From contig DYGI01000001.1 of NCBI GenBank assembly GCA_020724805.1, positions 111,157 to 175,156 of the forward strand: 64,000 bases of DNA, written 5' to 3'. This stretch comes from Candidatus Microgenomatus sp. (GTDB lineage Bacteria > Patescibacteriota > Minisyncoccia > UBA6257 > GWB1-50-10). A program made the position numbers and the translations under genes. The notes under the pieces were generated by a model. That model made no database searches, had not been told where the DNA came from, and worked only from the letters and a program-made list of their open reading frames with translations. Of the stretch, positions 5,275 to 62,849 are shown one piece after another (the stretch's first letter is position 1; every line of letters starts with the position of its first letter).

Positions 5275-5280
5275 CCATCC

Positions 5281-9245: not shown

Positions 9246-11000
9246 ATGGAAACCAAAATGCCAAAACCGTACGAACCCTCTTCGGAGGACACCCGCAGCG
9301 TTATCGCGCCGGCGGGAGCCGAGATGTCGTCGAACTATTTGAAGCTTGGGGATTACTACGCAAAAACGCTTTTTGTGTTCACCTATCCGCGCTACGTGGC
9401 AAGCGGGTGGTTTTCGCCGCTCATCAACCTCCCTGACATGCTCGATATTTCCATTTTCGTGCACCCCACCGATACCGGGGTAGCGCTGCGAAATCTCAGG
9501 AAAAAAGTTGCGCAAGTGCAGGCGGAGATGATGGAACGCGAAGAAAAGGGATTCGTGCGCGATCCCGTGCTCGAGACCGCATACCATGACCTTGAAAACC
9601 TCCGCGATACGCTCCAGCAGGCGCAGGAAAAGCTCTTTAAAGTGGGAGTCTACATCACGCTCTATGGAAAGTCTCCCGAAGAACTTTCAAAGCTTGAGGA
9701 TAAAATACAGTCCATTTTGGAATCCAAGCTGGTGAACATAAAACCGGCGCTCTTCCGCCAAGACGAAGGGTTTCTCTCGGTACTCCCTACCGGCTCGGAC
9801 AAACTCGAGATCAATACCCCCATGAACTCGGGGCCTGCATCTTCGCTTTTCCCGTTCGTATCGCCGGACCTCACTTCCGACAAGGGAATTCTCTACGGCA
9901 TCAATCTTCATAATCAATCACTCATCATTTTTGACCGTTTTTCCCTCGAGAATGCGAATGCGGTGGTGTTCGCGAAGTCCGGTTCCGGAAAGTCCTATGC
10001 GACAAAACTCGAGATTTTGCGCTCCATGATGATGGGTACGGACATGATCGTTATTGACCCGGAGAATGAGTACCAAAATCTCGCGAACGCGGTCGGGGGA
10101 AGTTATTTCAAAATCTCTCTCACCTCCCCAAGCCATATCAACCCCTTCGATATCCCGCTGATTCCTGAGGGAGAGGAACCGTCCGACGTGTTCAAATCCC
10201 ACATTTTAAACCTCACCGGCCTCGTGAAGCTCATGCTCGGTACGGTCACGCCGGAAGAAGATTCACTCCTCGACCGCGCCATTACGGAAACCTACGCATC
10301 CCGCGACATCAACGCGGAAAATTTTGGAAGCATCAAAGAATTGAATCCTCCTCTCCTTGAAGACCTTCAAACGGTGCTCGCGAATACCGAGGGAGGAAGG
10401 TCCATCGCCACTCGTCTTGAAAAATTTGTGAAGGGTTCGTATGCGGGATTTACGAACGCGCCCACGAACATCGACGTAAAGAATCGGCTGATTGTGTTCT
10501 CTATCCGCGACCTTGAAGAGGAGCTTCGCCCTATCGCGATGTATATCGTATTGAACTTCGTGTGGAACTTGGTTCGTTCCGAACTCAAGCGCCGCCTCCT
10601 TATCATCGACGAGGCGTGGTGGATGATGAAATATAAGGATTCCGCATCGTTCCTCTTCGGCCTCGTAAAGCGCGCTCGAAAATACTACCTCGGCATCACC
10701 ACCATCACTCAAGATGTGGAGGACTTCCTTCGGTCCGAATACGGCCGCCCTATCGTCACCAACTCTTCCATTCAACTCCTCATGAAACAATCGCCCACGT
10801 CCATTGAAGCGGTCGCGTCCGCATTCGACCTCACCGAGGGTGAGAAAATGCTCCTCCTTGAAGCGGGGGTTGGCGAGGGGCTTTTCTTTGCGGGTTTGAA
10901 ACATGTGGCGGTAAAAATCATCGCGTCCTACACCGAAGATCAGATTATCACCACGAATCCGGAGCAAATGCTCGAAATAAAAGGATTACGGAAGGAGTGA
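9246..11000 (+). CDS. VirB4/TrbE/CagE-family type IV secretion ATPase (C-terminal ATPase part)
   Basis: 584 aa; Walker A FAKSGSGKSYAT, Walker B LLIIDEAWWM (the DEAW motif characteristic of VirB4/TraC). Confidence 0.8.
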   Translation: METKMPKPYEPSSEDTRSVIAPAGAEMSSNYLKLGDYYAKTLFVFTYPRYVASGWFSPLINLPDMLDISIFVHPTDTGVALRNLRKKVAQVQAEMMEREEKGFVRDPVLETAYHDLENLRDTLQQAQEKLFKVGVYITLYGKSPEELSKLEDKIQSILESKLVNIKPALFRQDEGFLSVLPTGSDKLEINTPMNSGPASSLFPFVSPDLTSDKGILYGINLHNQSLIIFDRFSLENANAVVFAKSGSGKSYATKLEILRSMMMGTDMIVIDPENEYQNLANAVGGSYFKISLTSPSHINPFDIPLIPEGEEPSDVFKSHILNLTGLVKLMLGTVTPEEDSLLDRAITETYASRDINAENFGSIKELNPPLLEDLQTVLANTEGGRSIATRLEKFVKGSYAGFTNAPTNIDVKNRLIVFSIRDLEEELRPIAMYIVLNFVWNLVRSELKRRLLIIDEAWWMMKYKDSASFLFGLVKRARKYYLGITTITQDVEDFLRSEYGRPIVTNSSIQLLMKQSPTSIEAVASAFDLTEGEKMLLLEAGVGEGLFFAGLKHVAVKIIASYTEDQIITTNPEQMLEIKGLRKE

Positions 11001-15492: not shown

Positions 15493-15630
15493 TTACCGCG
15501 GCGCGAGGCGGCGACGCCCCTTCCGCCGCCTCCGGCGCAGCACCGAACGCCCATTAGAGGTTCTTGAGCGAACGAGGAACCCGTGGGTCTTCTTTCGCTT
15601 ACGGCGGTTCGGCTTATAAGTGAAACTCAT
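15493..15630 (-). CDS. rpmH: 50S ribosomal protein L34
   Basis: Hand translation of the minus strand gives [45 protein letters not shown]; not in the ORF track because it is <60 aa. Confidence 0.85.
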
Positions 15631-15765
15631 AGCTTCACCAGCATACTAGAAAATACCCGAAAATTCAACGCGAAACGCTTACAAACCTTGTTCACACGCT
15701 ATGCACTCTTCACCCACATTCCAAACTTTTCCCGCATCTTGCTCCGCGCACGGAGCGCAGGTAGT

Positions 15766-17154
15766 ATGGTGGGTATTATGAACCCGAAAGAGCTGTGGAA
15801 GGCGACGTTGGGGGAGATAGAACTTCAAATCTCCAAACCGAATTTCAGTACGTGGCTTAAGAACAGCGAGTTGGTGGAGCGGAACGAACGCGAAGGTGTA
15901 GCGTTGGTGGGACTTCCTAATAATTTTGCGAAAGAGTGGGTTCGGAACCGTTACCACAAACTCATCCTTGGTTCCCTTCGTAATCTCGACAGCTCAATAC
16001 GGAACGTGGACTATGTTGTTCTGACGGGCGTGCGCGAAGTTCCCGCGCGCGTCGCTACTACCAAAGTTCCTGCGGCAACACCCCTTACCGACGAGCGGTC
16101 GCAGCTCCCTATAACCGAACTCAAAGTCGATCCGCTTACCAACCTTAATCCTCGATACACATTCGATACGTTCATTGTCGGCTCTTCGAACGAACTTGCG
16201 TACGCGGCGATTCAAGCGGTAATAGGCGCGGTCGGAAAAAAATACAATCCTCTTTTCATATACGGAGGAGTGGGACTTGGGAAAACCCATCTTCTTCAAG
16301 CGGCGGGAAACACGATTTCAAAAAACGTAGGGGGAAGAAACCGCGTGCTTTACGTGTCTTCAGAAAAATTCATCAATGATGTGGTGTGGGCGGTTCGCAA
16401 CAAAAGGATGGAGGATGTAAAGAAAAAGTACCGGGACGTGGACGTGCTCATTATCGACGACATCCAGTTTATTGGAGGAAAAACAACCACTGAACTTGAG
16501 TTTTTTTACACTTTTAACGCGCTTTATGAGCATTCAAAGCAAATAATCATCTCCTCAGACCGGCCTCCCGCCGCTATCCCCACCCTTGAGGAGAGGCTTC
16601 GCTCCCGCTTCGAGGGGGGCATGATAGCGGACATTACCTATCCGGACTACGAAATGCGCCTCGCTATCCTTCGCGCCAAACTTCAGGAACTCGGAACACC
16701 GCTCGACGATAAGGTCCTTACCCATATTGCGGCGAAAGTGCAGAAAAATATCCGGGAGCTCGAGGGCGTCCTCAATAAGGTTCTCTTCTTCCATCAACAT
16801 AAAGGGGGGGTCGATGTTAAAAAACTAGATGAGATAATTAATGAGACCACTCAAGTGACCGCAAAAAACGTGAGTGCGTCCGATGTTATTAAAACCGTTG
16901 CAGAGTTCTTTGAAGTTCCCATAACCGATCTTACGCAGCGCTCACGGAAGCAGGAGGTGGTGGAACCCCGCCAAATCGCCATGTTCCTTCTCCGGGACCT
17001 TCTTAAGCTCTCCTATCCCCATATCGGGGAGAAGTTGGGAAAACGGGACCACACGACCGCGATCCATGCATATGAGAAGATAAACAAAGAACTTAGCCAA
17101 AATCCTGCGCTCAACCAAAAAATAATGCTCATTAAAGAACGTGTGTATAAGTAG
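15766..17154 (+). CDS. dnaA: chromosomal replication initiator protein DnaA
   Basis: AAA+ Walker A GGVGLGKTHLL, Walker B LIIDDIQF, C-terminal DNA-binding helix; start moved to MVGIMNPKELW because the track start at 15583 overlaps rpmH. Confidence 0.9.
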   Translation: MVGIMNPKELWKATLGEIELQISKPNFSTWLKNSELVERNEREGVALVGLPNNFAKEWVRNRYHKLILGSLRNLDSSIRNVDYVVLTGVREVPARVATTKVPAATPLTDERSQLPITELKVDPLTNLNPRYTFDTFIVGSSNELAYAAIQAVIGAVGKKYNPLFIYGGVGLGKTHLLQAAGNTISKNVGGRNRVLYVSSEKFINDVVWAVRNKRMEDVKKKYRDVDVLIIDDIQFIGGKTTTELEFFYTFNALYEHSKQIIISSDRPPAAIPTLEERLRSRFEGGMIADITYPDYEMRLAILRAKLQELGTPLDDKVLTHIAAKVQKNIRELEGVLNKVLFFHQHKGGVDVKKLDEIINETTQVTAKNVSASDVIKTVAEFFEVPITDLTQRSRKQEVVEPRQIAMFLLRDLLKLSYPHIGEKLGKRDHTTAIHAYEKINKELSQNPALNQKIMLIKERVYK

Positions 17155-27613: not shown

Positions 27614-29290
27614 TTATTTTTCTCTCCAAAGGAGAGGACCCGTCACGCGCTCCACCTCGTCGAACGAGGTGATACCCTGGAGAACCTTCAGCGTCCCATC
27701 TTCCTGCATTGTAGTCATTCCCCCCTCGCGTGCCAAGCGCGCAAGGTCCAATTCCGTAGGATTTTTGTAGATTGATTCCTCTATCGGCTTGGTAATGGCA
27801 AAAAGCTCGAATATGGAAGTGCGCCCCCGGTACCCGAGATTCTTACATTCGGAACATCCTTTAGGCGCATAGACCGTTGGTTTTGCGTACGGCGTTCGAT
27901 CCACCCTCGCGGGGAGCGCTTTCATGAATTCCGCGATACGCGCCTCGTCCTCTTTTGAGAGAGGCGCTGCGACGCGGCAGTGAGCGCAAAGTATGCGCAC
28001 GAGGCGTTGCGCGATAACGAGCGAAAGTGCGGGCCCTAAAATTTGAGGTTGGATGCCGAGGTCAAGGAGTCGGGGCACGGCGCCCACCGCGTCGTTCGTG
28101 TGAAGCGTTGAAAATACGATGTGGCCCGTAAGGGAAGCGTTCAAAGCTATCTCTGCGGTTTCTTTATCGCGTATCTCGCCCACAAGGATGATGTTGGGGT
28201 CCTGGCGGAGGATGGCCCGGAGACCCGAGGCAAACGTGTAATTCGCTCCGGGGTCCACCTGGGTCTGCGAGATGCCTCCTAGGTGATACTCGATGGGGTC
28301 TTCGACGGTGATTATCTTTATTTCCGGTTTCCATACGTGTTTCAGAAAAGCGTAGAGCGTGGTTGTTTTTCCGCTCCCGGTAGGGCCGGTGTTCAAGATT
28401 AAGCCGTTGGGTTTTTTTATCTCCGCTTTGACTATCGCAAGATCGTCGGCGCGCCACCCAAGCTCTTCGAGATTTACTTTGAGCGCATTGGGGTCCAAAA
28501 CACGCATAACCACAGTCTCCCCATATTCCGAGGGGATGAGCGAAGTACGGACTTCGACGTCGCGGTCCTCGAGATCTATGGTGAAGCGCCCGTCCTGGGG
28601 TTCGGTCGCCACGTTCAATTTGAGGTTGGAAAGAAGTTTTACCCGCGTGACGAGAGAGTGATATACGGGCGTGGCAAATCCTTCGAACGCGGCATAGAGC
28701 AGTCCGTCAATGCGGTAGCGGAGCGTGCCCCCGCCTTCCCGCGGCTCGAGATGGATATCGGAAGCCCGAAGTGCCATGGCGCCCGCGATGATGATTTCGA
28801 GCATCTCCGACGTGAGAGGACTTTTGAATTCAGTGATGGCGACTTTCACGTCCTCGAGGTTTTTCATCTTTCCTTTGAGCGTCTCGAGGCGGGCATGGTC
28901 TATTTGCACCTTGCCGCTTATCACTTTTTCCTCCGTGGGAACGTACTGGTAGTAATGCCACTCGTGGGACAGCGAAGTGAGCGAAACCACCACTACCTCG
29001 ACGGTATAGGTTTTTTTGAGTCGCTCGATAATCGCCTTTGCGTCGGGCTTTTCGGGGTTGAAGGCCGCGAGGACGAGTTTTTTTCTGACGAGCTGGAGAG
29101 GAACTATGAGTGCTTCCTTTGCGTCCGCCTCCGGGACGAGCTGCATGGCGTCTATCTCGGTCGGGACTTTTACCGAGACGAGGTCGAGATAGGGAAGCTT
29201 GAGGGTCGCGGCGCGCCGCTTTGCGTCAGCTTCCTCGGCCTCTTTACGCTGCTTCGCGAGCTTTTCTTCCAGGGCTTTGGTTTGAAGCAT
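27614..29290 (-). CDS. pilB: GspE/PilB-family type II/IV secretion (pilus assembly) ATPase
   Basis: 558 aa; N-terminal GSPII-N-like domain, Walker A GPTGSGKTTTLYA, tetracysteine CxxC...CxxC, Asp/His boxes. Confidence 0.85.
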   Translation of the reverse strand: MLQTKALEEKLAKQRKEAEEADAKRRAATLKLPYLDLVSVKVPTEIDAMQLVPEADAKEALIVPLQLVRKKLVLAAFNPEKPDAKAIIERLKKTYTVEVVVVSLTSLSHEWHYYQYVPTEEKVISGKVQIDHARLETLKGKMKNLEDVKVAITEFKSPLTSEMLEIIIAGAMALRASDIHLEPREGGGTLRYRIDGLLYAAFEGFATPVYHSLVTRVKLLSNLKLNVATEPQDGRFTIDLEDRDVEVRTSLIPSEYGETVVMRVLDPNALKVNLEELGWRADDLAIVKAEIKKPNGLILNTGPTGSGKTTTLYAFLKHVWKPEIKIITVEDPIEYHLGGISQTQVDPGANYTFASGLRAILRQDPNIILVGEIRDKETAEIALNASLTGHIVFSTLHTNDAVGAVPRLLDLGIQPQILGPALSLVIAQRLVRILCAHCRVAAPLSKEDEARIAEFMKALPARVDRTPYAKPTVYAPKGCSECKNLGYRGRTSIFELFAITKPIEESIYKNPTELDLARLAREGGMTTMQEDGTLKVLQGITSFDEVERVTGPLLWREK

Positions 29291-45423: not shown

Positions 45424-45742
45424 TGGTGGACATGGTCGGAGTCGAACCGACGTGTAACGCTTTCGGTAAAAAGCCCTCTACAAGCTTATTTCTCTTACGA
45501 GAACAAATGGTTCGTAATTTTGCGCTCCGCTACTGAACCGTCTTACGGAGCGCGAGCCTCATTTATTACACCGGAGAACCCCTATGAGGCGTCGGGAGCC
45601 GATGTCCTACTTACGCGAAAGCGTAAGCGGGAGCTGCAACTTTAGAGTTGGCAGTTTTAGGTTTGACCATGGATTTACGAGCGAATGGTCGGCTCGGCCT
45701 GCAAGCTCTCTACTTCACGCGCTAACAAGGCCCGTCATGCCC
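45424..45742 (-). ncRNA. ssrA: tmRNA (ssrA)
   Basis: 5' GGGCATG pairs with 3' CATGTCC-ACCA, including a G3:U70 wobble (AlaRS identity element); T-arm GTCGG-TTCGACT-CCGAC; PK1-like GGCCGAG...CTCGTAAA; internal tag ORF GCC AAC TCT AAA GTT GCA GCT CCC GCT TAC GCT TTC GCG TAA (ANSKVAAPAYAFA) at 45611-45652; immediately downstream of smpB. Confidence 0.8.
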
Positions 45743-48594: not shown

Positions 48595-50205
48595 TTGTGC
48601 GATAGAGTGAATGAAATGCTCCGTGACGAAGTTCTGAAACTCGTACAAAAACACGCTCCGAAGGGGACGGCGGTAACGCTTTCCGTACCCGAAGACGCGC
48701 GTCTTGGTCACTATTCCACGAATGTGGCGTTCGCGCTTTCCAAAATAGAGAAAAAATCACCTTTGGAAATTGCCGAACGTATTGCGTCTGACGTTACAAG
48801 TTCCAAGTCCCCAGCCATTAGTCGCGCAGTCGCTGCCGCTCCGGGATTCATCAACTTTTTCCTCGCGCCCAAAGCACTCCATGAGGAATTGAACGCTATC
48901 GCAAAAGCGAAGAAGAATTATGGCCGGTCAAAAGTTAAAAGTTCCAAGTTAAAGGTTCAAGTCGAGTTCGTCTCCGCAAACCCGACCGGACCCCTCACGC
49001 TCGCGAACGGCCGCGGTGGATTTTTGGGTGACGTACTCGCGAACGTCTTGGAAAACGCAGGCGCCGCGGTGGAGCGCGAATACTATGTGAACGACACGGG
49101 GAACCAGATCTTCACGCTCGGGAAATCGCTCCTCGCTTCGCTCGGCTTCGTGCCGGACGATGAAACTTTATACAAAGGCGAGTACGTCTCCGAATGGGCC
49201 GCGAAGCACAAGAAGGACGTGGAGAAGATGCGCAAAGACCCCGCGAAGCTCGGTGAAAAAGCGGCGGGCGATTTTTTGAAACTCATCAAACGCGCATTGG
49301 AAAAGGAAGCACATATCAAGTTTGACCGGTACACGTCCGAGAAAAAGAACATCCACGCAAAAGGGTACGTAAAGAAAGCGCTCGCACTTTTCAAGAAGAA
49401 AGGCGTGACGTACGAGAAAGAAGGCGCCACGTGGCTCAAAACCACCGCGGAAGGGGATGACAAGGACCGCGTGCTCGTGACGGGCGGCGGCTTCCCCACG
49501 TACTTCCTCGCGGACGCGGGCCACTACCTCGAAACCAAAGAGCGCGGGTTCAAGGCGAAGATAAATATCCTAGGCCCCGACCACTACGGATACGTGGCGC
49601 GCATCCAGGCCGCCGCGAAGCTCGTGGGCCTCGCAAACTCCAAGGTGCTCATCACGCAGGCGGTGCGCCTCATTCGGGGCGGCGCGGAGGTGAAGATGTC
49701 GAAGCGCAAGGGGAACTTCGTGACGTTTGAGGAAGTGGTGGAAGAGGTCGGGGCGGACGCCGCGCGCTTTTTCTTCCTCTCCGTGGCGCCCGAGTCCCAC
49801 ATGGACTTCAACCTGGACCTCGCAAAGGAACGCTCCAACAAAAACCCCGTCTACTACGCCCAGTACGCCTACGTCCGCGCGAAGGCGGTGGTCGCAAAAG
49901 CCGGGAAGATCGCGGGCAAGCCCGACCTCTCTTTACTCAATACCCCCGACGACGCGGCGCTCCTCTTCCAGCTCTCCCGCCTCCCCGAGGTTCTCGCCGA
50001 CGCCGCAAATGACTACGCCGTCCACCGGCTTACGCAATACGCCTCTACCCTCGCCCGCGCATTCCACACCTTCTACGAAAAGGAGCACGTGGTAGGCGAA
50101 GCCCCCGCGCTCGCCGCCGCACGGCTCGCGCTCGTAAAGGGGAGCATTATCGTGTTTGAAAACCTTTTCCGCATTCTCGGTATCAGCGCTCCTTCAAAAA
50201 TGTAA
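48595..50205 (+). CDS. argS: arginine--tRNA ligase
   Basis: Class I HIGH-type motif (SANPTGPLTLANGRGG), Add-1 N-terminal domain, C-terminal DALR anticodon-binding domain; 536 aa. Confidence 0.9.
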   Translation: MCDRVNEMLRDEVLKLVQKHAPKGTAVTLSVPEDARLGHYSTNVAFALSKIEKKSPLEIAERIASDVTSSKSPAISRAVAAAPGFINFFLAPKALHEELNAIAKAKKNYGRSKVKSSKLKVQVEFVSANPTGPLTLANGRGGFLGDVLANVLENAGAAVEREYYVNDTGNQIFTLGKSLLASLGFVPDDETLYKGEYVSEWAAKHKKDVEKMRKDPAKLGEKAAGDFLKLIKRALEKEAHIKFDRYTSEKKNIHAKGYVKKALALFKKKGVTYEKEGATWLKTTAEGDDKDRVLVTGGGFPTYFLADAGHYLETKERGFKAKINILGPDHYGYVARIQAAAKLVGLANSKVLITQAVRLIRGGAEVKMSKRKGNFVTFEEVVEEVGADAARFFFLSVAPESHMDFNLDLAKERSNKNPVYYAQYAYVRAKAVVAKAGKIAGKPDLSLLNTPDDAALLFQLSRLPEVLADAANDYAVHRLTQYASTLARAFHTFYEKEHVVGEAPALAAARLALVKGSIIVFENLFRILGISAPSKM

Positions 50206-50404: not shown

Positions 50405-51346
50405 CTAAAGGGTGAATGTCGTCATTTGGAACACGACGAAGAGTACGTATACGAAAACAAGGCCGATACCTTCAAGGCGCGTGAGCTTTTTATCCGTTTC
50501 GTAGAAGCGGTTCAGAACCGCGACAAGCACCAAAGTAAAAATAAGGAGGAGATAATACGAAGAGCCGACTTCTGTTGTCATTGGCTTCACAATCGCAAAG
50601 ATGCCGACGATTGCCGGGTTCGCGATGGTGGAGCCGATGAGGTTGGAGAGCGAGAGCTCCTCCACGTTGCGGCGCCACGCGCGGATGGCAACGATGATTT
50701 CCGGAAGATTCGTGCCAATGCCGAAGAGGACGATGCCGACGACGAAAGGAGAGATGCCGAAATCTTTTGTGAGCAGCAGCGTGACCTCAATGATGTAGTG
50801 GGAAATAACCAAAACCGCCGCGAGACCGAGTATGATGAAAAACGTTTTTTCCGCAATGCCGCGGACAGTGTCGTGGCGCTCAAACTTTTCGTGGGGTCCT
50901 CGCGCCAAGAGGTACCACAGCACGAGTCCGTACCCCACGAGGAGCGCAATGCCGTCCACGCGGCCCAAATTTCCGTCCAAGCCGAGAAGGAGGGGCGCCA
51001 TTACAAATACGACGATGGGGAGAAAGGTTCCCGGTTTCGCGCCCGTTTGTATATTGCGGTTCAGTATTGCGGAGAACCCAAGGACCAAGCCGAAAGTCAC
51101 AAGAATGCCGCCGAAAAGATTACCGAGCGAAAGCGCGCGAATATCAAGGAGAAGGGAATTTACGCCCACCGCGAGCTCGGGGAACGAGGTTAAGAATCCG
51201 AGGATAATGCCGAACGCAAATATTTTCACACCGAGCGCCATACCGAGGCGCTTCACGTTCGTGACAATGAGGTCCGCGGATTTGCCGAGGAGATAGAAAA
51301 GAATAACGAGCGCGAGGGAGAGGCCGAATGTTCCGAGGTCAGGCAT
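50405..51346 (-). CDS. CaCA-family Na+/Ca2+ (cation) antiporter
   Basis: Two alpha-repeat motifs (GKSADLIVTNV...SFPELAV and GTNLPEIIVAI), ~10 TM; start trimmed to MPDLGTFG. Confidence 0.75.
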   Translation of the reverse strand: MPDLGTFGLSLALVILFYLLGKSADLIVTNVKRLGMALGVKIFAFGIILGFLTSFPELAVGVNSLLLDIRALSLGNLFGGILVTFGLVLGFSAILNRNIQTGAKPGTFLPIVVFVMAPLLLGLDGNLGRVDGIALLVGYGLVLWYLLARGPHEKFERHDTVRGIAEKTFFIILGLAAVLVISHYIIEVTLLLTKDFGISPFVVGIVLFGIGTNLPEIIVAIRAWRRNVEELSLSNLIGSTIANPAIVGIFAIVKPMTTEVGSSYYLLLIFTLVLVAVLNRFYETDKKLTRLEGIGLVFVYVLFVVFQMTTFTL

Positions 51347-51396
51347 ACGAAAATAGTAGCAAGGAAGCCGATTTCTCGCTACAATTGGATTAACCA

Positions 51397-54300
51397 ATGC
51401 TTCGGAATTTCAAAGAATTTTCGTTGCCCGCAGTGGAAGAAAAGATGCTCGCCTATTGGCGGGCCAATCGTGTTTTTGAGGCGTCACTCAAGAAAACCGC
51501 GAAGGGCAAAAAATTCATTTTTTACGAAGGGCCGCCCACCGCGAACGGACGCCCCGGCATTCACCACGTACTCGCGCGCGCTTTCAAAGACATTATTCCC
51601 CGCTACAAAACGATGCGCGGTTTTCACGTGCCGCGCAAAGGCGGATGGGACACGCACGGACTTCCGGTGGAGATAGAAGTGGAAAAAGCGCTCGGGCTCA
51701 AATCAAAGAAGGAGATAGAAAAATACGGTATCGCCGCCTTCAATGCGAAGTGCAAGGAGTCGGTGTGGAAATACAAAGACGAGTGGGAGCGCCTCACCGA
51801 GCGAATGGGCTTTTGGCTCGATATGAAGCATCCGTACATCACGTATGAGAACCGGTACATAGAAAAGGTGTGGGGGATTTTGGCGCATGTTGCGAAGCAG
51901 AAATTGCTCTACAAAGGCCACAAGGTGGTGCCGTGGTGCCCACGATGTGGGACGGGGCTTTCTTCACACGAACTTGCCTTGGGGTACGAGACGGTGGATG
52001 ACACGTCGGTGTATGTGAAGTTCTACGCACCGAAACTCAAAGCCTCCATTCTCTCGTGGACCACGACGCCGTGGACGCTTCCAGGGAACGTGGCACTCGC
52101 GGTAGGGAAAGAGATCAAGTACGTAATCGCAAAAGTTGGAGGAGAAAATTATGTGGTGGCGAAAGAACGAACGGCCGAGGTGTTCAAAAATGAAAAATAC
52201 GAAATAGGGAAAGAATTACGCGGGAAAGACCTCGTAGGTCTCGCGTATGAGCCGCTTTTCGATGTTCCTACGCTCAAATCCAAGACCTCGTACAAGGTGT
52301 ATGCGGCGGATTTTGTAACCACCGAGGACGGCACCGGCGTGGTGCACACGGCGGTGATGTATGGCGAGGACGACTACCGACTCGGAATGAAGGCGGGTCT
52401 CCCCGCGCGCCACACGGTGGATGAAGCAGGGAAGTTCACAAAAGACGTGAAGGGGTTTGCGGGACTTTTTGTGAAGGCCGCGGAAACCGAGAAAAAAATC
52501 ATTGAGTACCTGAAAGTTAAAGGTTTATTGTTCCAAGTCAAAAGTTATTCTCATGAATACCCTTTCTGCTGGCGGTGTAAGACGCCATTGCTCTACTACG
52601 CGCGCGACTCATGGTTCATCGCGATGTCCAAGCTTCGCACGAAGCTTCTTTCGGAGAACAAGAAAATAAACTGGGTGCCGGCGCACCTGCGCGACGGCCG
52701 CTTCGGGGAATGGCTTCGCGAAGTGAAGGATTGGGCCATCTCCCGTTCCCGCTATTGGGGTACCCCACTTCCCATATGGGAGTGCGAAAAATGTGGGCAT
52801 ATGGATGTTTTAGGCAGCATGAAGGAGGTGCAAGAACGCGCCGCATGCCGCAACAAGTTTGTATTTGTGCGCCACGGCGAAGCGGACCATAACGTACTCG
52901 GGCTCTGCGGAACGTATGAAGATACTAAGAAATTTACTTCACACCTTACCAAGAAAGGAATTGTCGCCATTCGCCACACTGCGCGTGCGATGAAAAAATT
53001 GAAGCCTGACTATATCGTGACATCGCCGCTTGTCCGCACAAAAGAAACCGCCGCGATACTCCAAGAAATTTTAGGAGGAAAGATAGTAGTGGAGAAAGGT
53101 TTGCGCGAAATGAACGGTGGAAAATTTGCGGGGAAACCGGTCGAGGACTTTTACAAACTTTTCGGTGGCGAGCACGAAATATTCGAGAAAAATCCTCATG
53201 GGGGTGAAACGTGGCGCGATATCCAAAAGCGCATGGGAGATGTGTTCCGCGCCATGAATGACCGCTATCACGGGAAGACCATCATCGTAGTGGGTCACGG
53301 CGACCCATTGTGGATTTTGAAAGGGATGCTGGAAGGCGCAACAGATGAGGAGCAGCTTGCCCTTGATTACCCGGCAACTGGCGCTCGGTACGATATTCAA
53401 ACTGGCATGCTCCCGCGCGACGCTGAAGGACGCGTGGATCTCCACCGCCCATACGTGGACGATGTGACGTTCGCGTGCACGAAATGTAAGAAAGGGAATA
53501 TGAAACGCGTGCCGGAAGTATTGGATGTGTGGTTTGATTCGGGTGCGATGCCGTTCGCAGGCAACGCAGAAAATGGAAAATGGACAATGGAAAATTATCC
53601 GGCGGATTATATCAGCGAAGGAGTGGACCAGACGCGCGGCTGGTTCTACACGCTCCACGCGATAGGGGTGTTGATGGGGAAGGGCCGCTCGTACAAGAAC
53701 GTGGTCTCTCTTGGGCTTGTGCTGGATAAGAATGGCCAGAAAATGTCGAAGTCGAAGGGGAATACGGTAGATCCGTGGGCGATGATCGAAAAATACGGCA
53801 TTGATGCGGTGCGCTGGTATCTCTACACCGTGAACCCGGCGGGTGAGGCGAAGAAATTCGACGAGGCGGACATCGGCAAAACGCTCCGGCAGTTTCTGAT
53901 GATGGTCTACAATTCATGCCTTTTTTACGACACCTATGCGAATAAAAATGAAAATGGGAAATGGAAAGTGGAAAATGTTGATCATGTATTAGACCGGTGG
54001 GTGCTCGCACGACTTGCGGAGACCGAAGATTTTGCCACAAAATCGCTCGAGAAATATGAGGTAGGAGAAGCGGCGCGTGCGATAGAAGCGTTTGCCGGTG
54101 ATCTTTCGCGCTGGTATATTCGCCGCTCACGCCGGCGGCTGCAAAAACCCGAAAGCGACAAGGATTACCGTGCCGCGTCCGCGACGCTTGGCTACATACT
54201 CATGGAACTCGCCAAGCTTATAGCGCCCTTCGCGCCATTCTTCGCCGAAGCGCTCTATCTTTCGCTCGTACCACGTAAGAAAGGGAAGGTGGAAAGTGTG

Positions 54301-54846
54301 CATTTGGAAGCATGGCCGAAATCGGCAAAGCTGAAGGCGAGCGATAAAAAACTACTGAAGGAAATGGAAGAAGTGCGCCGGTTTGCAAGCATCGGTCTTG
54401 CGGTGCGGGCAGAGAAGGGCATCAAAGTGCGCCAGCCATTGAGCCAAATGAAAATTAAAGGTGGAAAATGGAACAATAAGGAGCTTCTCACCATCCTTGC
54501 GGACGAGGTGAATGTGAAAAAAGTCGCGGTGGATCCAAAACTCAAGGAGGAAATATTTATAGATGTAAATATTACCCACGAACTTTTGGAAGAAGGGTGG
54601 TTTCGAGAACTTACGCGCACCGTGCAGGGGATGAGGCAGGACGCAAACCTCACGCCGAAGGATATTGTTGTGGTGTATGCCGAAGTTCCGCCGGAACTTA
54701 CCCACGTCATCCGTTCCCGTGAGAAGGAGTTCAAGCGGGAGGTGAATGCACGCGCAGTGGAATTCGCGCGCGGGAAAAAACATCATGCCGAGCTCCAAAC
54801 GAAAATAGGGGAGTTCCCCGCGTGGCTTGCGGTGAAGAAAATCTAG
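51397..54846 (+). CDS. ileS: isoleucine--tRNA ligase (type 2) with an inserted histidine-phosphatase (PGAM-like) domain
   Basis: PPTANGRPGIHH (HIGH), WDTHGLPVE, CP1 editing region, KMSKSKGN; between the Zn-knuckle halves CEKCGH and CTKCKK is a ~200 aa segment with FVFVRHGEADHN (RHG) and IIVVGHGDPLW (catalytic His), i.e. a complete histidine phosphatase branch-1 fold. Confidence 0.9.
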   Translation: MLRNFKEFSLPAVEEKMLAYWRANRVFEASLKKTAKGKKFIFYEGPPTANGRPGIHHVLARAFKDIIPRYKTMRGFHVPRKGGWDTHGLPVEIEVEKALGLKSKKEIEKYGIAAFNAKCKESVWKYKDEWERLTERMGFWLDMKHPYITYENRYIEKVWGILAHVAKQKLLYKGHKVVPWCPRCGTGLSSHELALGYETVDDTSVYVKFYAPKLKASILSWTTTPWTLPGNVALAVGKEIKYVIAKVGGENYVVAKERTAEVFKNEKYEIGKELRGKDLVGLAYEPLFDVPTLKSKTSYKVYAADFVTTEDGTGVVHTAVMYGEDDYRLGMKAGLPARHTVDEAGKFTKDVKGFAGLFVKAAETEKKIIEYLKVKGLLFQVKSYSHEYPFCWRCKTPLLYYARDSWFIAMSKLRTKLLSENKKINWVPAHLRDGRFGEWLREVKDWAISRSRYWGTPLPIWECEKCGHMDVLGSMKEVQERAACRNKFVFVRHGEADHNVLGLCGTYEDTKKFTSHLTKKGIVAIRHTARAMKKLKPDYIVTSPLVRTKETAAILQEILGGKIVVEKGLREMNGGKFAGKPVEDFYKLFGGEHEIFEKNPHGGETWRDIQKRMGDVFRAMNDRYHGKTIIVVGHGDPLWILKGMLEGATDEEQLALDYPATGARYDIQTGMLPRDAEGRVDLHRPYVDDVTFACTKCKKGNMKRVPEVLDVWFDSGAMPFAGNAENGKWTMENYPADYISEGVDQTRGWFYTLHAIGVLMGKGRSYKNVVSLGLVLDKNGQKMSKSKGNTVDPWAMIEKYGIDAVRWYLYTVNPAGEAKKFDEADIGKTLRQFLMMVYNSCLFYDTYANKNENGKWKVENVDHVLDRWVLARLAETEDFATKSLEKYEVGEAARAIEAFAGDLSRWYIRRSRRRLQKPESDKDYRAASATLGYILMELAKLIAPFAPFFAEALYLSLVPRKKGKVESVHLEAWPKSAKLKASDKKLLKEMEEVRRFASIGLAVRAEKGIKVRQPLSQMKIKGGKWNNKELLTILADEVNVKKVAVDPKLKEEIFIDVNITHELLEEGWFRELTRTVQGMRQDANLTPKDIVVVYAEVPPELTHVIRSREKEFKREVNARAVEFARGKKHHAELQTKIGEFPAWLAVKKI

Positions 54847-54859
54847 TATACTACGCACA

Positions 54860-55474
54860 ATGTGGCAGGGCTTCCACGAAAGCTACCAAGCAGGAAAAGA
54901 CCTTGAACAAGGTCTTTTAGGGACGGAACGGCATCTTGCTCCGGAGGGAAAAGTGCGACACGTTGAGTTTGAGGGAGAGGTAGAGCAAGTTGAGGGGTAC
55001 CTTCCGTTTGAGGCGGCAGTTCAGAGCGCGAAGGAAAGGAAAACCTTTTCTCCTACCGATCCGGAGCCGGAATTTGCGAACGATCTCCACGCAACTATAG
55101 GGGAAATGTTAGGGCTTAAGGATTTGGGACAATTGGAATACTACACTGCACTCGCGCCAGAAGGATCGCCGCTCACCTCATTGGATTTTGATCACGGCGT
55201 GGACGCATTTTTTGAGCTAAAAACCCCTGGAGAATCTGGTCAGGAACGCGTGACTCTCGATATCTCATTGCGCGACAAAGAACGCGTAAAGGCGGACGTA
55301 TTGTTACGGCTCTCTCCCGATTTTTCCCCTCCATCTACAAGATATGAACGGAAGATGATGTCGCCGGAGGAAAAGCAAATGTACCATGAAGCGCTTACGG
55401 GCTTCGCTCAGGAGATTATTGACAAATTCTTTGAAAAAATGCAGACTAAAAAAACGTCAGCCAAAGTTCATTGA
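54860..55474 (+). CDS. hypothetical acidic protein
   Basis: 204 aa ORF starting 14 nt after ileS; no motif recognised. Confidence 0.35.
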   Translation: MWQGFHESYQAGKDLEQGLLGTERHLAPEGKVRHVEFEGEVEQVEGYLPFEAAVQSAKERKTFSPTDPEPEFANDLHATIGEMLGLKDLGQLEYYTALAPEGSPLTSLDFDHGVDAFFELKTPGESGQERVTLDISLRDKERVKADVLLRLSPDFSPPSTRYERKMMSPEEKQMYHEALTGFAQEIIDKFFEKMQTKKTSAKVH

Positions 55475-60936: not shown

Positions 60937-61299
60937 TTAGTCGCCGAGTTTTTTTGCGCTCATGTGGAGCACTACGTTCACTGCGCTTACGACAAGCGCC
61001 CCCACGAGGAGCGCCATGTACCCCTCGATGGTAACCACGTCGCTCACGATGTCAAGGACGTAGAGGAGAAGTCCATTCACCACCACCGCAAAAAGTCCGA
61101 GCGTAAGCACCATTAAGGGGCCAAAGAAAAGTTTTAAAACGGGGCGGAGAAGCAAGTTCAATACCGCGAGTATCGCACCGGCGGTGGCAAGCGCTACGAA
61201 TTCGCTCGCCGCTGAAAATCCCGGCACGAACGAACTTGCCGCGAATAGCGCGACCATGTTCGAAACGACGGAAAAGATGATACGCCCGATAAACCTCAT
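60937..61299 (-). CDS. DUF360/holin-4-like membrane protein
   Basis: ~120 aa from MRFIGRIIF, 4 TM; ATGA overlap with the gpmI stop. Confidence 0.4.
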   Translation of the reverse strand: MRFIGRIIFSVVSNMVALFAASSFVPGFSAASEFVALATAGAILAVLNLLLRPVLKLFFGPLMVLTLGLFAVVVNGLLLYVLDIVSDVVTIEGYMALLVGALVVSAVNVVLHMSAKKLGD

Positions 61300-62849
61300 C
61301 TTAGATAGGATAACAAACTGGCGCCGGTCATCTCGGGAGGCGTGGGAATGTCCATAAGTTCGAGGAGGGTAGGAGCCACATCCGCAAGAAGTCCCTGGAC
61401 CGCGAAAGGATTCGGTTTTGAGGGGTTCGCACGCGCGAATTCCTTCGCGATGAGATAGCACGGTACCGGACTCGGGTTATGTTTGGTTTCGGGCTCGCCG
61501 GTGCGGGGATCGATGAGCACCTCGGCATTCCCGTGGTCGGACGTCACGATAAGGACATGTTCTCCTTCTTCCACCGCGACGAGGAGTCGTGCGAGTTCTC
61601 GGTCCACTGTCTCCACCGCCGCGACCGTTGCGGCGTAATTTCCTGTGTGGGCAATGATATCGGCGTTCGCGTAGTTGAGGAGAATGAAATCGAAACTTTT
61701 TTCCTTGAGCGCGAGAATGGCGCGATCGGTGATTGATTTTGCCTGCATGGCGGGACGCTCATCCTTTCGAAACACGTTTTCCGAGGGGATAAGGATTCGA
61801 AATTCATTGGCGAACGGTTCCTCGCGTCTTCCGTTGAAAAAATAAGTTACGTGCGCATATTTTTCCGTTTCCCCGATGCGCAACTGCCGAAGATTTCTGT
61901 CCGCGAGCACCTCACCGAGCGTGTGGACCATCGGCTCGGCGGGGAATGCGACATCAGCGTGCTTGCCGCGATGGTACCCGGTCATGGTGATTACCCTTAC
62001 TCGCTCGAGCGGGACGAGAGGGAATCCTGCGAACGAGGGATCAAGGAATGCATCGGAAATTTGACGCATACTGTCTTCGCGAAAGTTGAAAAACACCACC
62101 GCATCTCCGCTTGCTATGTGGGGCGCGCCATCGAGAACGCGGGGCTCTATGAATTCGTCGTTCAGCCCTTTTGCGTACGCGCCCTGGAGCACTTCTTCCC
62201 ACGTGGCGACTTTTGGCGCCGTTCCGGTGAGTGCGCGATATGCCTCCCGCGTGCGGTCAAAATGCCGATCGCGGTCCATGCCGTAATAGCGACCGCCAAG
62301 CGAAGCAATCTTCACATTGGACGCGCGCGCGAGGACGTTTGTGAGACGAGTGAGGAGCGTGCGCGCTTCGCGCGGTCCGCTGTCGATGCCGTCGGTGAAA
62401 AGATGGAGCGCCACCGTGACTCCCTGGAATAGCGCCGCAAGTTTTATCAACGCTTCCAAGTGCGCAAAAGAGGCGTGTACGATGCCACTCGTGAGGAGAC
62501 CCACGAAATGTACGGTTCCCTTCGTCTCTTTCGCGTGGGAGAAGGCGCCAAGAAGCGCAGGATTTTTTTCGAACGTCCTTTCGGTGATGGCGCGGGCGAT
62601 GCGTTCCGAGTGCTGCTCCGAGGCGCGCCCGGCGCCGAGAGTGACGTGGCCCACCTCGCTGTTTCCCTCCTCGTCCCAAGGAAGCCCCACTGCGAGGCCC
62701 GAGGCCTGAAGCGCGCACCCGGGATATCGGCTCTCAAAGCGGGCAATGGTTTCCGGCCTGGCGGCATGGATGGGGTTGGATTGGTCCTCGGCGCCCAATC
62801 CCCACCCGTCCAAAATGGCAAGTACGTACGTGCGATTCATTGTATTCAT
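61296..62849 (-). CDS. gpmI: 2,3-bisphosphoglycerate-independent phosphoglycerate mutase
   Basis: iPGM metal-binding and catalytic Ser region (ILDGWGLG, SEVGH, TSDHGN); 517 aa. Confidence 0.9.
   Translation of the reverse strand: MNTMNRTYVLAILDGWGLGAEDQSNPIHAARPETIARFESRYPGCALQASGLAVGLPWDEEGNSEVGHVTLGAGRASEQHSERIARAITERTFEKNPALLGAFSHAKETKGTVHFVGLLTSGIVHASFAHLEALIKLAALFQGVTVALHLFTDGIDSGPREARTLLTRLTNVLARASNVKIASLGGRYYGMDRDRHFDRTREAYRALTGTAPKVATWEEVLQGAYAKGLNDEFIEPRVLDGAPHIASGDAVVFFNFREDSMRQISDAFLDPSFAGFPLVPLERVRVITMTGYHRGKHADVAFPAEPMVHTLGEVLADRNLRQLRIGETEKYAHVTYFFNGRREEPFANEFRILIPSENVFRKDERPAMQAKSITDRAILALKEKSFDFILLNYANADIIAHTGNYAATVAAVETVDRELARLLVAVEEGEHVLIVTSDHGNAEVLIDPRTGEPETKHNPSPVPCYLIAKEFARANPSKPNPFAVQGLLADVAPTLLELMDIPTPPEMTGASLLSYLR

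Follow-up and report, generated by a model that had tools for sequence, protein, structure and literature searches.

The type-2 isoleucyl-tRNA synthetase (IleRS) encoded by ileS at positions 51397–54846 of the 64,000-nucleotide stretch of DNA analysed here (the window) almost certainly carries a complete short histidine phosphatase of the PhoE/PspA/CobC type, which is joined through two short linkers to the tip of its zinc-binding CP3 subdomain. This nested module is a branch-1 histidine phosphatase of 187 residues (residues 486–672; 52852–53412). All features described below lie on the forward strand unless noted, and residue numbers refer to the 1149-residue IleRS. A first-pass annotation of the sequence had considered this architecture undescribed, and no description of a histidine phosphatase nested in IleRS was found in a literature search.

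The same annotation had read the host protein as a continuous IleRS open reading frame with all class I signatures, which was borne out by the location of GIHH (residues 54–57; 51556–51567), a HIGH-type but non-canonical form in place of HxGH, and of the KMSKS loop (residues 782–786; 53740–53754). In the alignment, G54, H56 and H57 of the former and K782, M783, S784 and K785 of the latter are invariant. The G/AXHH signature is functional in IleRS2 and has been linked to mupirocin hyper-resistance (PMC10485003). The CP1 editing domain (approximately residues 201–390; 51997–52566) contains WTTTPWT (residues 221–227) and GTGVVH (residues 312–317), lies between the CP-core zinc cysteines CPRC (181–184) and CWRC (391–394), aligns to 1ILE and to 1WK8 and 1UE0, two structures of the editing domain in isolation, and keeps its editing residues T222–T224, H317 and D326 invariant. 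The catalytic domain resumes with its second Rossmann half at the DVWFDSG strand/helix (residues 710–716; 53524–53544), followed by an anticodon-binding domain (residues 866–1016) and a C-terminal tRNA-binding DUF5915 domain (residues 1033–1148), which together cover 53992–54840 by Pfam. The Pfam order is thus tRNA-synt_1 split in two, His_Phos_1, Anticodon_1 and DUF5915. Despite the insertion, the 1149-residue protein scores 889.1 bits against the NCBIfam profile TIGR00392 (ileS; cut-off 621.4).

An AF2 model of the whole protein (pLDDT 89.4, pTM 0.80) finds its best Foldseek matches in the type-2 IleRS structures 8c8u/8c8w and 1ile. In sequence comparison, type-2 structures (1ile, 8c8w, 8c8u) score 781–809 bits and type-1 structures 346–356 bits. 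The nearest structures and the DUF5915 domain both place the protein in type 2, with which it shares the CP-core and CP3 zinc knuckles, the editing domain and the type-2 C-terminal domain. It aligns end to end with Thermus thermophilus IleRS (1ILE, 808 bits), and its model matches P. megaterium IleRS2 (8C8U) with TM scores of 0.72/0.80. However, it differs from 1ILE in having GIHH rather than HVGH, and an enzyme of about 190 residues where 1ILE has a CP3 loop of about 6 residues. The IleRS body is presumably the housekeeping enzyme and charges tRNA-Ile by the normal two-step route; no second ileS was found in the 64-kb window, which is carried on a contig of about 570 kb. Assignment to the acquired mupirocin-resistance enzymes MupA and MupB was rejected (779 and 765 bits vs. 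a cut-off of 1900), as was assignment to the GNAT-type IleRS family NF040702 (327.5 bits vs. 1999, with no acetyltransferase match in Pfam).

The insertion point is defined by the alignment to 1ILE, in which query residues 4–483 correspond to chain residues 4–481 and query residues 680–1009 to chain residues 488–821. Because the 1ILE chain aligns on both sides and leaves only about 6 residues between, about 196 residues (484–679; 52846–53433) take the place of the 1ILE loop. The N-terminal arm of CP3 (52783–52851) consists of zinc knuckle 1 (CEKC, residues 463–466, 52783–52794), which is equivalent to the CP3 zinc motif of T. thermophilus IleRS (alignment; PMC7191050), and a short helix that runs into the insert. 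The C-terminal arm (53413–53511) aligns to T. thermophilus residues 488–504 and contains LPRD..G..DLHRPY and zinc knuckle 2 (CTKC, residues 694–697, 53476–53487). Among 120 aligned homologues, C463, H683, P685, D688 and C697 are present in all, C694 in 119 and C466 in 118. The first-pass annotation had placed a module of about 200 residues between CEKC and CTKC at 52855–53450 (residues 487–685), which is correct to within a few codons.

The insert matches the Pfam family His_Phos_1 (PF00300) over residues 489–652 (52861–53352; profile positions 2–165 of 194) with 111.7 bits vs. a cut-off of 21.7 and E = 4.6e-32. The AF2 model gives it the alpha/beta fold of the superfamily. The RHG motif (residues 492–494; 52870–52878), with R492 and the nucleophile H493, directly follows the strand 487–492 and is invariant in 120/120 homologues and in 237/237 ungapped domain copies. 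SPLVR (53023–53037) supplies S543 and the phosphate-binding R547, each conserved in 242/242 copies, and GGETW (53200–53214), the 'GES' motif of the superfamily, supplies E604, which is equally conserved (242/242). LREMNGG (53101–53121) contains E571 (Glu in 179, Asp in 62 and Gln in 1 of the 242 copies), which from the PhoE/PspA alignment and family knowledge we take to be the general-acid position of PhoE and the cofactor-dependent phosphoglycerate mutases. The second catalytic histidine, H634, lies in GHGDPLW (residues 633–639; 53293–53313) and is found in 120/120 homologues and 240/241 domain copies. RHG and GHGDPLW were thus both found where the initial reading had seen its catalytic motifs. 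Profile score, RHG, the second arginine, histidine and acid, and the fold together identify the module as a histidine phosphatase, and R547, H634, E571 and E604 line up with the residues of PhoE and PspA.

In the predicted reaction, R492, R547 and H634 would hold a phosphoryl group for attack by H493, E571 or E604 would protonate the leaving group, and the phospho-histidine would then be hydrolysed. Judged from its residues, the module is very probably catalytically active. Most lineage-specific CP insertions in class Ia synthetases have no catalytic role, which would favour a pseudo-enzyme, kept only as a framework that binds tRNA or supports oligomerisation. However, pseudo-enzymes normally lose their catalytic residues, and here R492, H493, R547, E604 and H634 are conserved across about 240 copies, duplicated copies included, which makes a purely structural role very improbable. 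The strict conservation of these residues across a deep clade suggests that the activity itself is needed.

The module had also been called PGAM-like, a label that might point to the glycolytic cofactor-dependent phosphoglycerate mutase (dPGM) of the organism. In favour of this, dPGM_arch is the top NCBIfam match by score, at 79.8 bits. However, all dPGM profiles miss their cut-offs (NF038349, 79.8 vs. 225; TIGR01258 pgm_1, 26.8 vs. 81.7; NF002339, 34.7 vs. 316). A dPGM typically has about 230–250 residues, which include additional cap elements and a tail at the C-terminus; the 187-residue module is without this extra length, and the mutase matches of 228–243 residues fall below the short phosphatases. 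In addition, a separate iPGM is already encoded in the window at 61296–62849. The mutase reading was therefore rejected as highly improbable. In the modelled fold, the nearest structures are the short phosphatases PhoE, PspA and CobC, with mutases ranking below. The equivalog cut-offs of CobC (TIGR03162, 63.8 vs. 162.9), PspA (NF045917, 55.5 vs. 350), SixA (TIGR00249, 20.5 vs. 74.5) and GpmB (NF002901, 35.7 vs. 261) were all missed. The module is only 19–24% identical to PhoE (1H2E), PspA/iPSP1 (4IJ5), CobC (6E4B) and the riboflavin-pathway HFP (9MMH), and it differs from such short phosphatases in its own motifs (SWPE..LT.KG, SHGDPLW and TGE.R.L) and in being nested in, or operonic with, a tRNA synthetase. 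A word-index search with the insert alone returned only generic PhoE-like proteins, one of which (P0123) lies in an unrelated proteobacterial locus.

An assembly chimera, evidence for which the first-pass annotation had named as grounds to refute its reading, or an intein or transposon in ileS, has next to no probability. A slight dip of GC to 0.457 at 52900–53199 would suit such an origin. However, each of 7 contigs that were assembled independently from independent samples encodes an identical copy of the protein, the domain is present in at least 120 of the closest homologues, and the same junctions recur in 64 species, so that a chimera is refuted as an explanation. The reading frame is continuous, Pfam shows no Hint, endonuclease or transposase domain, and the flanks have no inverted repeats and only short direct repeats at chance level; intein and mobile element were rejected on the same grounds. 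A chance profile match is likewise excluded by the E-values and by the conservation of the architecture in these homologues.

The survey of IleRS homologues, in which all of the at least 120 closest carry the domain, extends to 64 GTDB species representatives with the phosphatase nested at the same site. Among Paceibacteria-type Patescibacteria, the nested form is old and extends across the clade. Newly described here, the nearest relatives outside IleRS are a stand-alone Patescibacteria family of about 190 residues, which shares the family-specific DPLW motif with the nested modules and whose gene precedes, in the same orientation, an ileS that lacks the insert at 15/15 stand-alone loci, within 100 bp in 12 of them. 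The gene order in relatives is argS, phosphatase gene, ileS (synteny in L005–L008 and L089). In the window, argS (48595–50205; Pfam) is the syntenic neighbour, and a membrane protein of the Na+/Ca2+ exchanger family (50405–51397, reverse strand; PF01699) abuts the start of ileS; an exchanger gene of this family also flanks ileS in L008, where the IleRS has 939 residues.

The direction of change between the nested and the split form was examined with several trees. In a midpoint-rooted IleRS tree the insert-less clade is sister to the others; of the 14 insert-less IleRS included in the tree analysis, 13 belong to two neighbouring clades. With T. thermophilus as the only outgroup, the root falls among nested forms and the basal branches measure 0.013–0.026, and in an unbootstrapped neighbour-joining tree of the domain the stand-alone forms fall within nested diversity. 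Split forms make up a clade on a long branch, and their motifs are altered. Taken together, the sequence trees lean tentatively toward the nested state as ancestral.

The phosphatase is rather likely to be a functional partner of the synthetase, since relatives keep the same phosphatase either nested in IleRS or directly before ileS. Out of 343 GTDB loci in all, this pairing holds in 79/79 evaluable ones across the two physical arrangements. It is somewhat unlikely, though worth serious consideration, that the module is instead a neutral hitch-hiker, i.e., a broad-specificity housekeeping phosphatase beside ileS that was captured into, or split from, a permissive loop, with fusion only ensuring its expression and with no mechanistic tie to aminoacylation. 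Solved structures show three different topologies for CP3, the most variable subdomain of IleRS (PMC7191050), which would make it a tolerant insertion site. Inserts of unrelated kinds occur in CPR IleRS as well: a Y1 transposase-like domain, a P-loop domain (in P0289, with only weak, generic kinase matches) and GNAT, which in P0245 accompanies the phosphatase. Some IleRS carry 2–4 phosphatase copies at different sites, which suits a dosage or generalist role, and the nearest solved relatives are generalist metabolite phosphatases. In one case the module is fused to the C-terminus of ArgRS in a block from which ileS is absent; this is the product expected from loss of a stop codon between neighbours and thus resembles read-through. 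However, several observations argue against neutrality. The ileS pairing persists in both arrangements, and a switch between nested and upstream forms would take an elaborate in-frame rearrangement, with little chance of fixation if the pairing did not matter. The second, independent site at which the module has been inserted also lies within IleRS, and 107 of the 110 long matches are IleRS, with none in ValRS, LeuRS or MetRS. The catalytic residues, moreover, are strictly conserved. On the other side, the linkage may reflect few independent events, because insert-less IleRS cluster and the argS–ileS–recO block is syntenic anyway.

The explanation that fits the data best as a whole, to which we give an even chance, is a companion phosphohydrolase dedicated to adenylate-forming enzymes. 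The phosphatase would accompany enzymes of the HUP class that convert ATP to an adenylate, acting beside rather than inside the synthetic site, with a small, soluble phosphorylated compound from the adenylation cycle as its substrate. Candidate substrates are pyrophosphate, AMP and a 3′-phosphorylated adenosine nucleotide, and tethering would provide fixed stoichiometry and proximity to the synthetase. A fusion of the module to ATP sulfurylase (P0312; one cluster, 3 sequences) lies in a sulfotransferase context, and its phosphatase part is only moderately closer to the present family (158/144 bits) than to generic ones (116 bits). ATP sulfurylase/PAPS synthase–pyrophosphatase fusions occur in eukaryotic algae and oomycetes. 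They also combine an adenylate-forming, PPi-releasing enzyme with a phosphohydrolase that pulls or clears the reaction, in parallel to P0312 and to the proposed role, although their hydrolase is a family-I inorganic pyrophosphatase and not a histidine phosphatase. We know of no branch-1 histidine phosphatase that hydrolyses PPi, and a literature search gave no support for such an activity. An approximate E. coli Ppa query gave no match to a conventional pyrophosphatase in the 64 kb of the genome of about 570 kb. A substrate of the nucleotide or PPi type is a tentative suggestion. It is conceivable, if rather doubtful, that class-I aminoacylation in a large CPR branch includes an extra, unrecognised step by a dedicated histidine phosphatase. 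If so, IleRS function in these organisms depends on phosphatase chemistry, and the step would be either local destruction of PPi/AMP in cells otherwise conserving PPi or the unblocking of a phosphate at the tRNA acceptor end. CP3 lies opposite CP2, with no reported contact to tRNA or the active site (PMC7191050, PMC11685878), and its position thus does not imply direct coupling. A mechanism that depends on geometry is also hard to reconcile with 2–4 copies at different sites.

Two other roles were weighed against that of a companion phosphohydrolase. Phosphatases that repair the tRNA 3′ end exist, such as the HD domain of the CCA-adding enzyme, as do toxins that pyrophosphorylate the CCA end (toxSAS). 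The module might similarly remove a 2′-/3′-phosphate, or a pyrophosphate remnant, from A76 of damaged or toxin-modified tRNA before charging, which is unlikely. The tie to two class-I synthetases, IleRS and ArgRS, suits a role at the level of tRNA over one at the level of the amino acid, and a 3′-phospho-adenosine substrate suits the sulfotransferase/ATP-sulfurylase context. The modules are also basic (net charge per 100 residues of +6.5 for stand-alone and +3.4 for nested forms vs. +2.5 and +1.9 for the IleRS bodies). However, CPR proteins are basic in general, and the difference between nested and stand-alone forms is not significant (p = 0.096). CP3, as noted, is not described as tRNA-contacting, and a precisely positioned end-processing site is hard to square with copies that number up to four and occupy several unrelated positions. 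The structural neighbours are all small-molecule enzymes, and there is no reason for such a need mainly at tRNA-Ile. Less probable still is a built-in protein phosphatase that reverses inhibitory phosphorylation of the synthetase, e.g., by HipA-type kinase toxins, for self-protection or regulation. The best structure and profile matches are metabolite phosphatases rather than SixA or PGAM5, no kinase was found in the window neighbourhood or in the relatives' neighbourhoods examined, and the ATP-sulfurylase fusion does not suit this role. To our knowledge, no kinase that targets IleRS has been described.

Accreted domains of aminoacyl-tRNA synthetases are normally RNA-binding, editing or regulatory. 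Here, a second hydrolytic enzyme, predicted to be fully equipped, lies within the catalytic domain of a synthetase that is presumably essential. IleRS has been noted for 'multiple nested domains' (bioRxiv 10.64898/2026.02.03.703510). Like the leucine-specific domain of LeuRS and the INS in ARD2 of IleRS, the module is nested in a surface loop of a class Ia synthetase, but those insertions are non-catalytic RNA-binding or allosteric elements, whereas the module is an independent enzyme with a full predicted active site. The NF040702 family (ileS_w_GNAT), for which no paper was found in the literature search, is a precedent for an extra catalytic domain in IleRS, with a different accreted enzyme. 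Other histidine phosphatase fusions, the RNase H/acid phosphatase proteins (NF005567, Rv2228c type) and the HPD of TFIIIC tau55 (2YN0, 6YJ6), differ in being fused terminally to unrelated hosts; their physiological substrates are poorly defined. The nested and operonic stand-alone versions form a natural 'Rosetta stone' pair, which together with the deep conservation points to a selected, undescribed biochemical connection of phosphate-ester hydrolysis with tRNA charging, or with adenylate formation in general, of relevance to how ultra-small, host-dependent bacteria organise core metabolism. That CP3 of IleRS permits the insertion of a whole enzyme may also be useful to protein engineering. 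Public annotation labels many genes of this kind no more specifically than 'class I tRNA ligase family protein'.

The IleRS encoded in the window (ileS, 51397–54846, + strand) is a two-enzyme polypeptide. As the first-pass annotation had stated, its reading frame runs through 1149 aa without interruption, and the quoted motifs were all located: CEKC at aa 463–466, RHG at aa 492–494, GHGDPLW at aa 633–639, CTKC at aa 694–697 and DVWFDSG at aa 710–716; KMSKS lies at aa 782–786. Pfam finds the class-I synthetase catalytic domain in two pieces, together with an anticodon-binding domain, DUF5915 (the C-terminal domain of type-2 enzymes) and, at aa 489–652, His_Phos_1 (E = 4.6e-32; 111.7 bits, gathering score 21.7), while the NCBIfam IleRS equivalog TIGR00392 scores 889 bits against a cut-off of 621, the interruption notwithstanding. 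In the alignment with the closest solved IleRS, the T. thermophilus structure 1ILE, query residues 4–483 correspond to chain residues 4–481 and query residues 680–1009 to chain residues 488–821, showing that about 196 residues (nt 52846–53433) take the place of a loop of about 6 residues between two zinc knuckles. The profile match and this alignment confirm the histidine-phosphatase domain proposed between the knuckles. The insert does lie inside the catalytic domain, but in the peripheral, variable CP3 subdomain rather than in the core to which it had been assigned. CP3, the IleRS element holding the insertion site, binds zinc in the Thermus IleRS and differs in topology among all three solved IleRS types (PMC7191050). 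Judged from its sequence, the IleRS body is fully equipped for activation, transfer and CP1 editing.

The first-pass annotation had considered an assembly chimera and suggested surveying homologues for the same insertion. However, the identical 1149-aa protein is encoded by seven contigs that are independent in sample and assembler, with no break in base composition across the insert. PF00300 is recorded for all 120 best homologues (53–79% identical to the window IleRS), which come from Brenner-, Jorgensen-, Lipton- and Harrisonbacteria, Paceibacterota and Minisyncoccia. A scan of GTDB species-representative genomes gave 343 loci with a relative, and 64 of the best 80, which were classified, carry the module within ileS, bounded by the same junctions. 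No repeats were found flanking the insert, and no intein or transposase domain was detected by Pfam in the window IleRS. Given the seven contigs, the 120 homologues, the 64 nested loci and the lack of flanking repeats, an assembly artefact or mobile insertion was rejected. The architecture is real, ancient and widespread, and the claim that it is undescribed agrees with the searched literature, in which no histidine phosphatase nested in an IleRS was reported.

Five residues, R492, H493, R547, E604 and H634, are invariant in the 120 homologues, in 66 stand-alone relatives and in 242 copies of the domain, taken from the GTDB loci and from representatives of 50%-identity clusters, each tandem copy included; among the 242, only truncated fragments and a single H-to-S change depart from this. 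At E571, which corresponds to the general acid of PhoE and of dPGM, 241 of the 242 have E or D. Mean pairwise identity is 0.42 for the insert, 0.67–0.73 for the Rossmann core and 0.48 for the C-terminal domain, so that the insert evolves faster than the core and at a rate like that of the C-terminal domain. Residue invariance and this rate comparison together suggest that the module is under purifying selection for catalysis. The insert is a PhoE-like histidine phosphatase with an intact set of catalytic residues, nested in CP3 of a type-2 IleRS. By the established chemistry of the family, R492, R547 and H634 would hold a phosphoryl group for transfer to H493, the leaving group would be protonated by an acidic residue (E571 or E604), and the phospho-histidine would then be hydrolysed by water. 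The label "PGAM-like" holds for the histidine phosphatase profile, but not in the sense of the cell's phosphoglycerate mutase: the module has only 187 aa and falls below every cut-off of the NCBIfam equivalogs dPGM, CobC, PspA, SixA and GpmB, and the window encodes a cofactor-independent mutase (iPGM_N plus Metalloenzyme; 61296–62849, − strand), the organism's glycolytic mutase therefore being separate from the insert. The module is instead a putative phosphatase.

Exhaustive HMMER searching with the insert as query brought up, besides IleRS-length proteins, a family of stand-alone proteins of about 190 aa from Patescibacteria (Nealsonbacteria, Parcubacteria), which are 33–38% identical to the insert and have its particular motifs SWPE..LT.KG, SHGDPLWLL and TGE.R.L in common with it. 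In three genomes inspected singly, the stand-alone gene lies 1–20 bp upstream of a co-oriented ileS encoding 931–946 aa without the insert, within an argS–phosphatase–ileS–(Na/Ca exchanger)–recO block syntenic with the window. Such a gene precedes a same-strand ileS without the insert in 15 of the best 80 GTDB loci (12 within 100 bp, three at 1–2.3 kb). One of the 80 is cut by a contig end; linkage to ileS thus holds in 79/79 evaluable loci among the best 80 of 343. In the IleRS without the insert, the CP3 zinc knuckles are retained, with a very short loop between them. The nested phosphatase has, in sister lineages, a split operonic counterpart. In Nealsonbacteria, a diversity-generating-retroelement-like pair (bAvd and reverse transcriptase RVT_1; L005 6597–7959, L006 6638–7711) sits between argS and the stand-alone gene. 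Some record titles (Acutalibacteraceae, Gammaproteobacteria and Saccharibacteria; L039, L068 and many "TPA_asm uncultured Candidatus Saccharibacteria" entries) conflict with the IleRS phylogeny, which places them among Paceibacteria-type Patescibacteria; these bins are probably mislabelled or contaminated.

In a neighbour-joining tree of the phosphatase module, which carries no support values, nested and stand-alone forms group in one clade, apart from generic PhoE-like proteins, with the stand-alone forms falling within nested diversity. A tree of the IleRS bodies, built on 890 columns with 100 bootstraps, unites eleven IleRS without the insert in one clade at 100% support (L005, L008, L033, L035, L038, L045, L052, L065, L067, L077 and L078); a further two pair up separately, and L066, likewise insert-less, is sister to a nested form at 100% support. 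With midpoint rooting, the split clade and the nested forms come out as sisters, whereas the T. thermophilus root leaves nested forms on either side, with basal branches of only 0.013–0.026. The eleven-member clade is a long branch; it has EMHKS for KMSKS and DVGNP for DVWFD, both core class-I motifs, and lies further from T. thermophilus IleRS (41% vs. 48% identity). Between insertion of a neighbouring gene and fission of a nested domain, the trees lean slightly towards a nested ancestral state. At least two transitions between the states are implied, and each way round calls for a fairly complex in-frame rearrangement that exchanges the order of the phosphatase and the initial 1.45 kb of ileS.

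Several IleRS carry more than one copy (P0236, P0301/P0434, P0256, P0238, P0265, P0291 and P0309), with catalytic residues kept throughout: P0301/P0434 have two in tandem in CP3, P0236 has its second just before the anticodon-binding domain, and P0256 has four. P0289 has a further P-loop kinase-like domain (AAA_18) after the DxWFxSG helix, beside the phosphatase, and P0245 an in-frame IS200-like Y1 transposase domain in the CP1 region plus a C-terminal GNAT domain. In CPR bacteria, IleRS seems particularly prone to taking up whole domains, although some insertions of the latter two types may be gene-calling or assembly artefacts. A long RelA/SpoT homologue (L093 1–2694) lies about 2.3 kb upstream of the P0434 gene, probably by coincidence, but it would fit a nucleotide-phosphate theme. 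IleRS accounts for 107 of 110 long representative hits, with two informative exceptions. P0292 (L089 6001–8070), an ArgRS, has a module of the insert's family at its C-terminus (bit scores of 243 with the stand-alone HMM and 96 with the generic PhoE-like one); its argS::phosphatase gene leads directly to recO, and the missing ileS must therefore sit elsewhere in that genome. P0312 (L090 8001–9707) fuses a phosphatase of the insert's family, or close to it, to PUA_2 and ATP-sulfurylase and is followed by a Sulfotransfer_1 gene (L090 9697–10536) inside a glycan-biosynthesis cluster, a context suggesting a role in PAPS/PAP or PPi turnover.

The nested phosphatase would surprise a synthetase specialist and is testable at once; its function is what we infer. 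Pairing with ileS in two arrangements, the second site in IleRS and the ArgRS and ATP-sulfurylase fusions suggest a module that partners ATP-to-adenylate enzymes and is not specific to Ile. A real functional partnership with the synthetase, of whatever kind, seems rather likely. However, several points speak against a companion role: the linkage statistics may rest on few independent events, CP3 has no known contact to the active site or tRNA, and the multiple copies at varied sites argue against any geometry-dependent mechanism. Of the three chief alternatives, neutral hitch-hiking of a housekeeping phosphatase is rather unlikely, healing of phosphorylated tRNA 3′ ends is improbable, and a self-protecting protein phosphatase is the least likely. 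The products common to the host enzymes are PPi, AMP and adenosine-nucleotide derivatives, and the sulfotransferase neighbour suggests 3′-phospho-adenosine compounds as well; a small-molecule phosphohydrolase beside the synthetase, acting on such a product, is tentatively proposed. To our knowledge, no branch-1 histidine phosphatase cleaves PPi, and a literature search for such activity in branch-1 members returned nothing relevant.

The class-I signature of the window IleRS is GIHH (51556–51567) in place of HxGH; G54, H56 and H57 are invariant in a 61-sequence alignment, and GxHH/AxHH prevails in relatives (51/63 nested, 13/14 split). This swapped motif, when present in IleRS2, leads to mupirocin hyper-resistance (PMC10485003), by analogy with which CPR IleRS carrying GxHH/AxHH are predicted to be hyper-resistant. 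A 204-aa ORF without a Pfam match (54860–55474, + strand) starts 14 bp past the ileS stop codon, recurs in that position on the independent contig L091 and is possibly co-transcribed with ileS. Three class-I synthetase genes, argS, ileS and trpS, lie in one 8-kb stretch inside the window, and a tmRNA gene (45424–45742, − strand) encodes the tag peptide ANSKVAAPAYAFA. Two large ORFs of 595 and 625 aa without Pfam matches (3487–7158 and 9246–11000, + strand), the TraG/VirD4-like P-loop ATPase near them and a type II/IV secretion ATPase (27614–29290, − strand) may belong to a pilus or to machinery of the conjugation type. The presence of dnaA (15583–17154, + strand) indicates that the window is probably near the replication origin.
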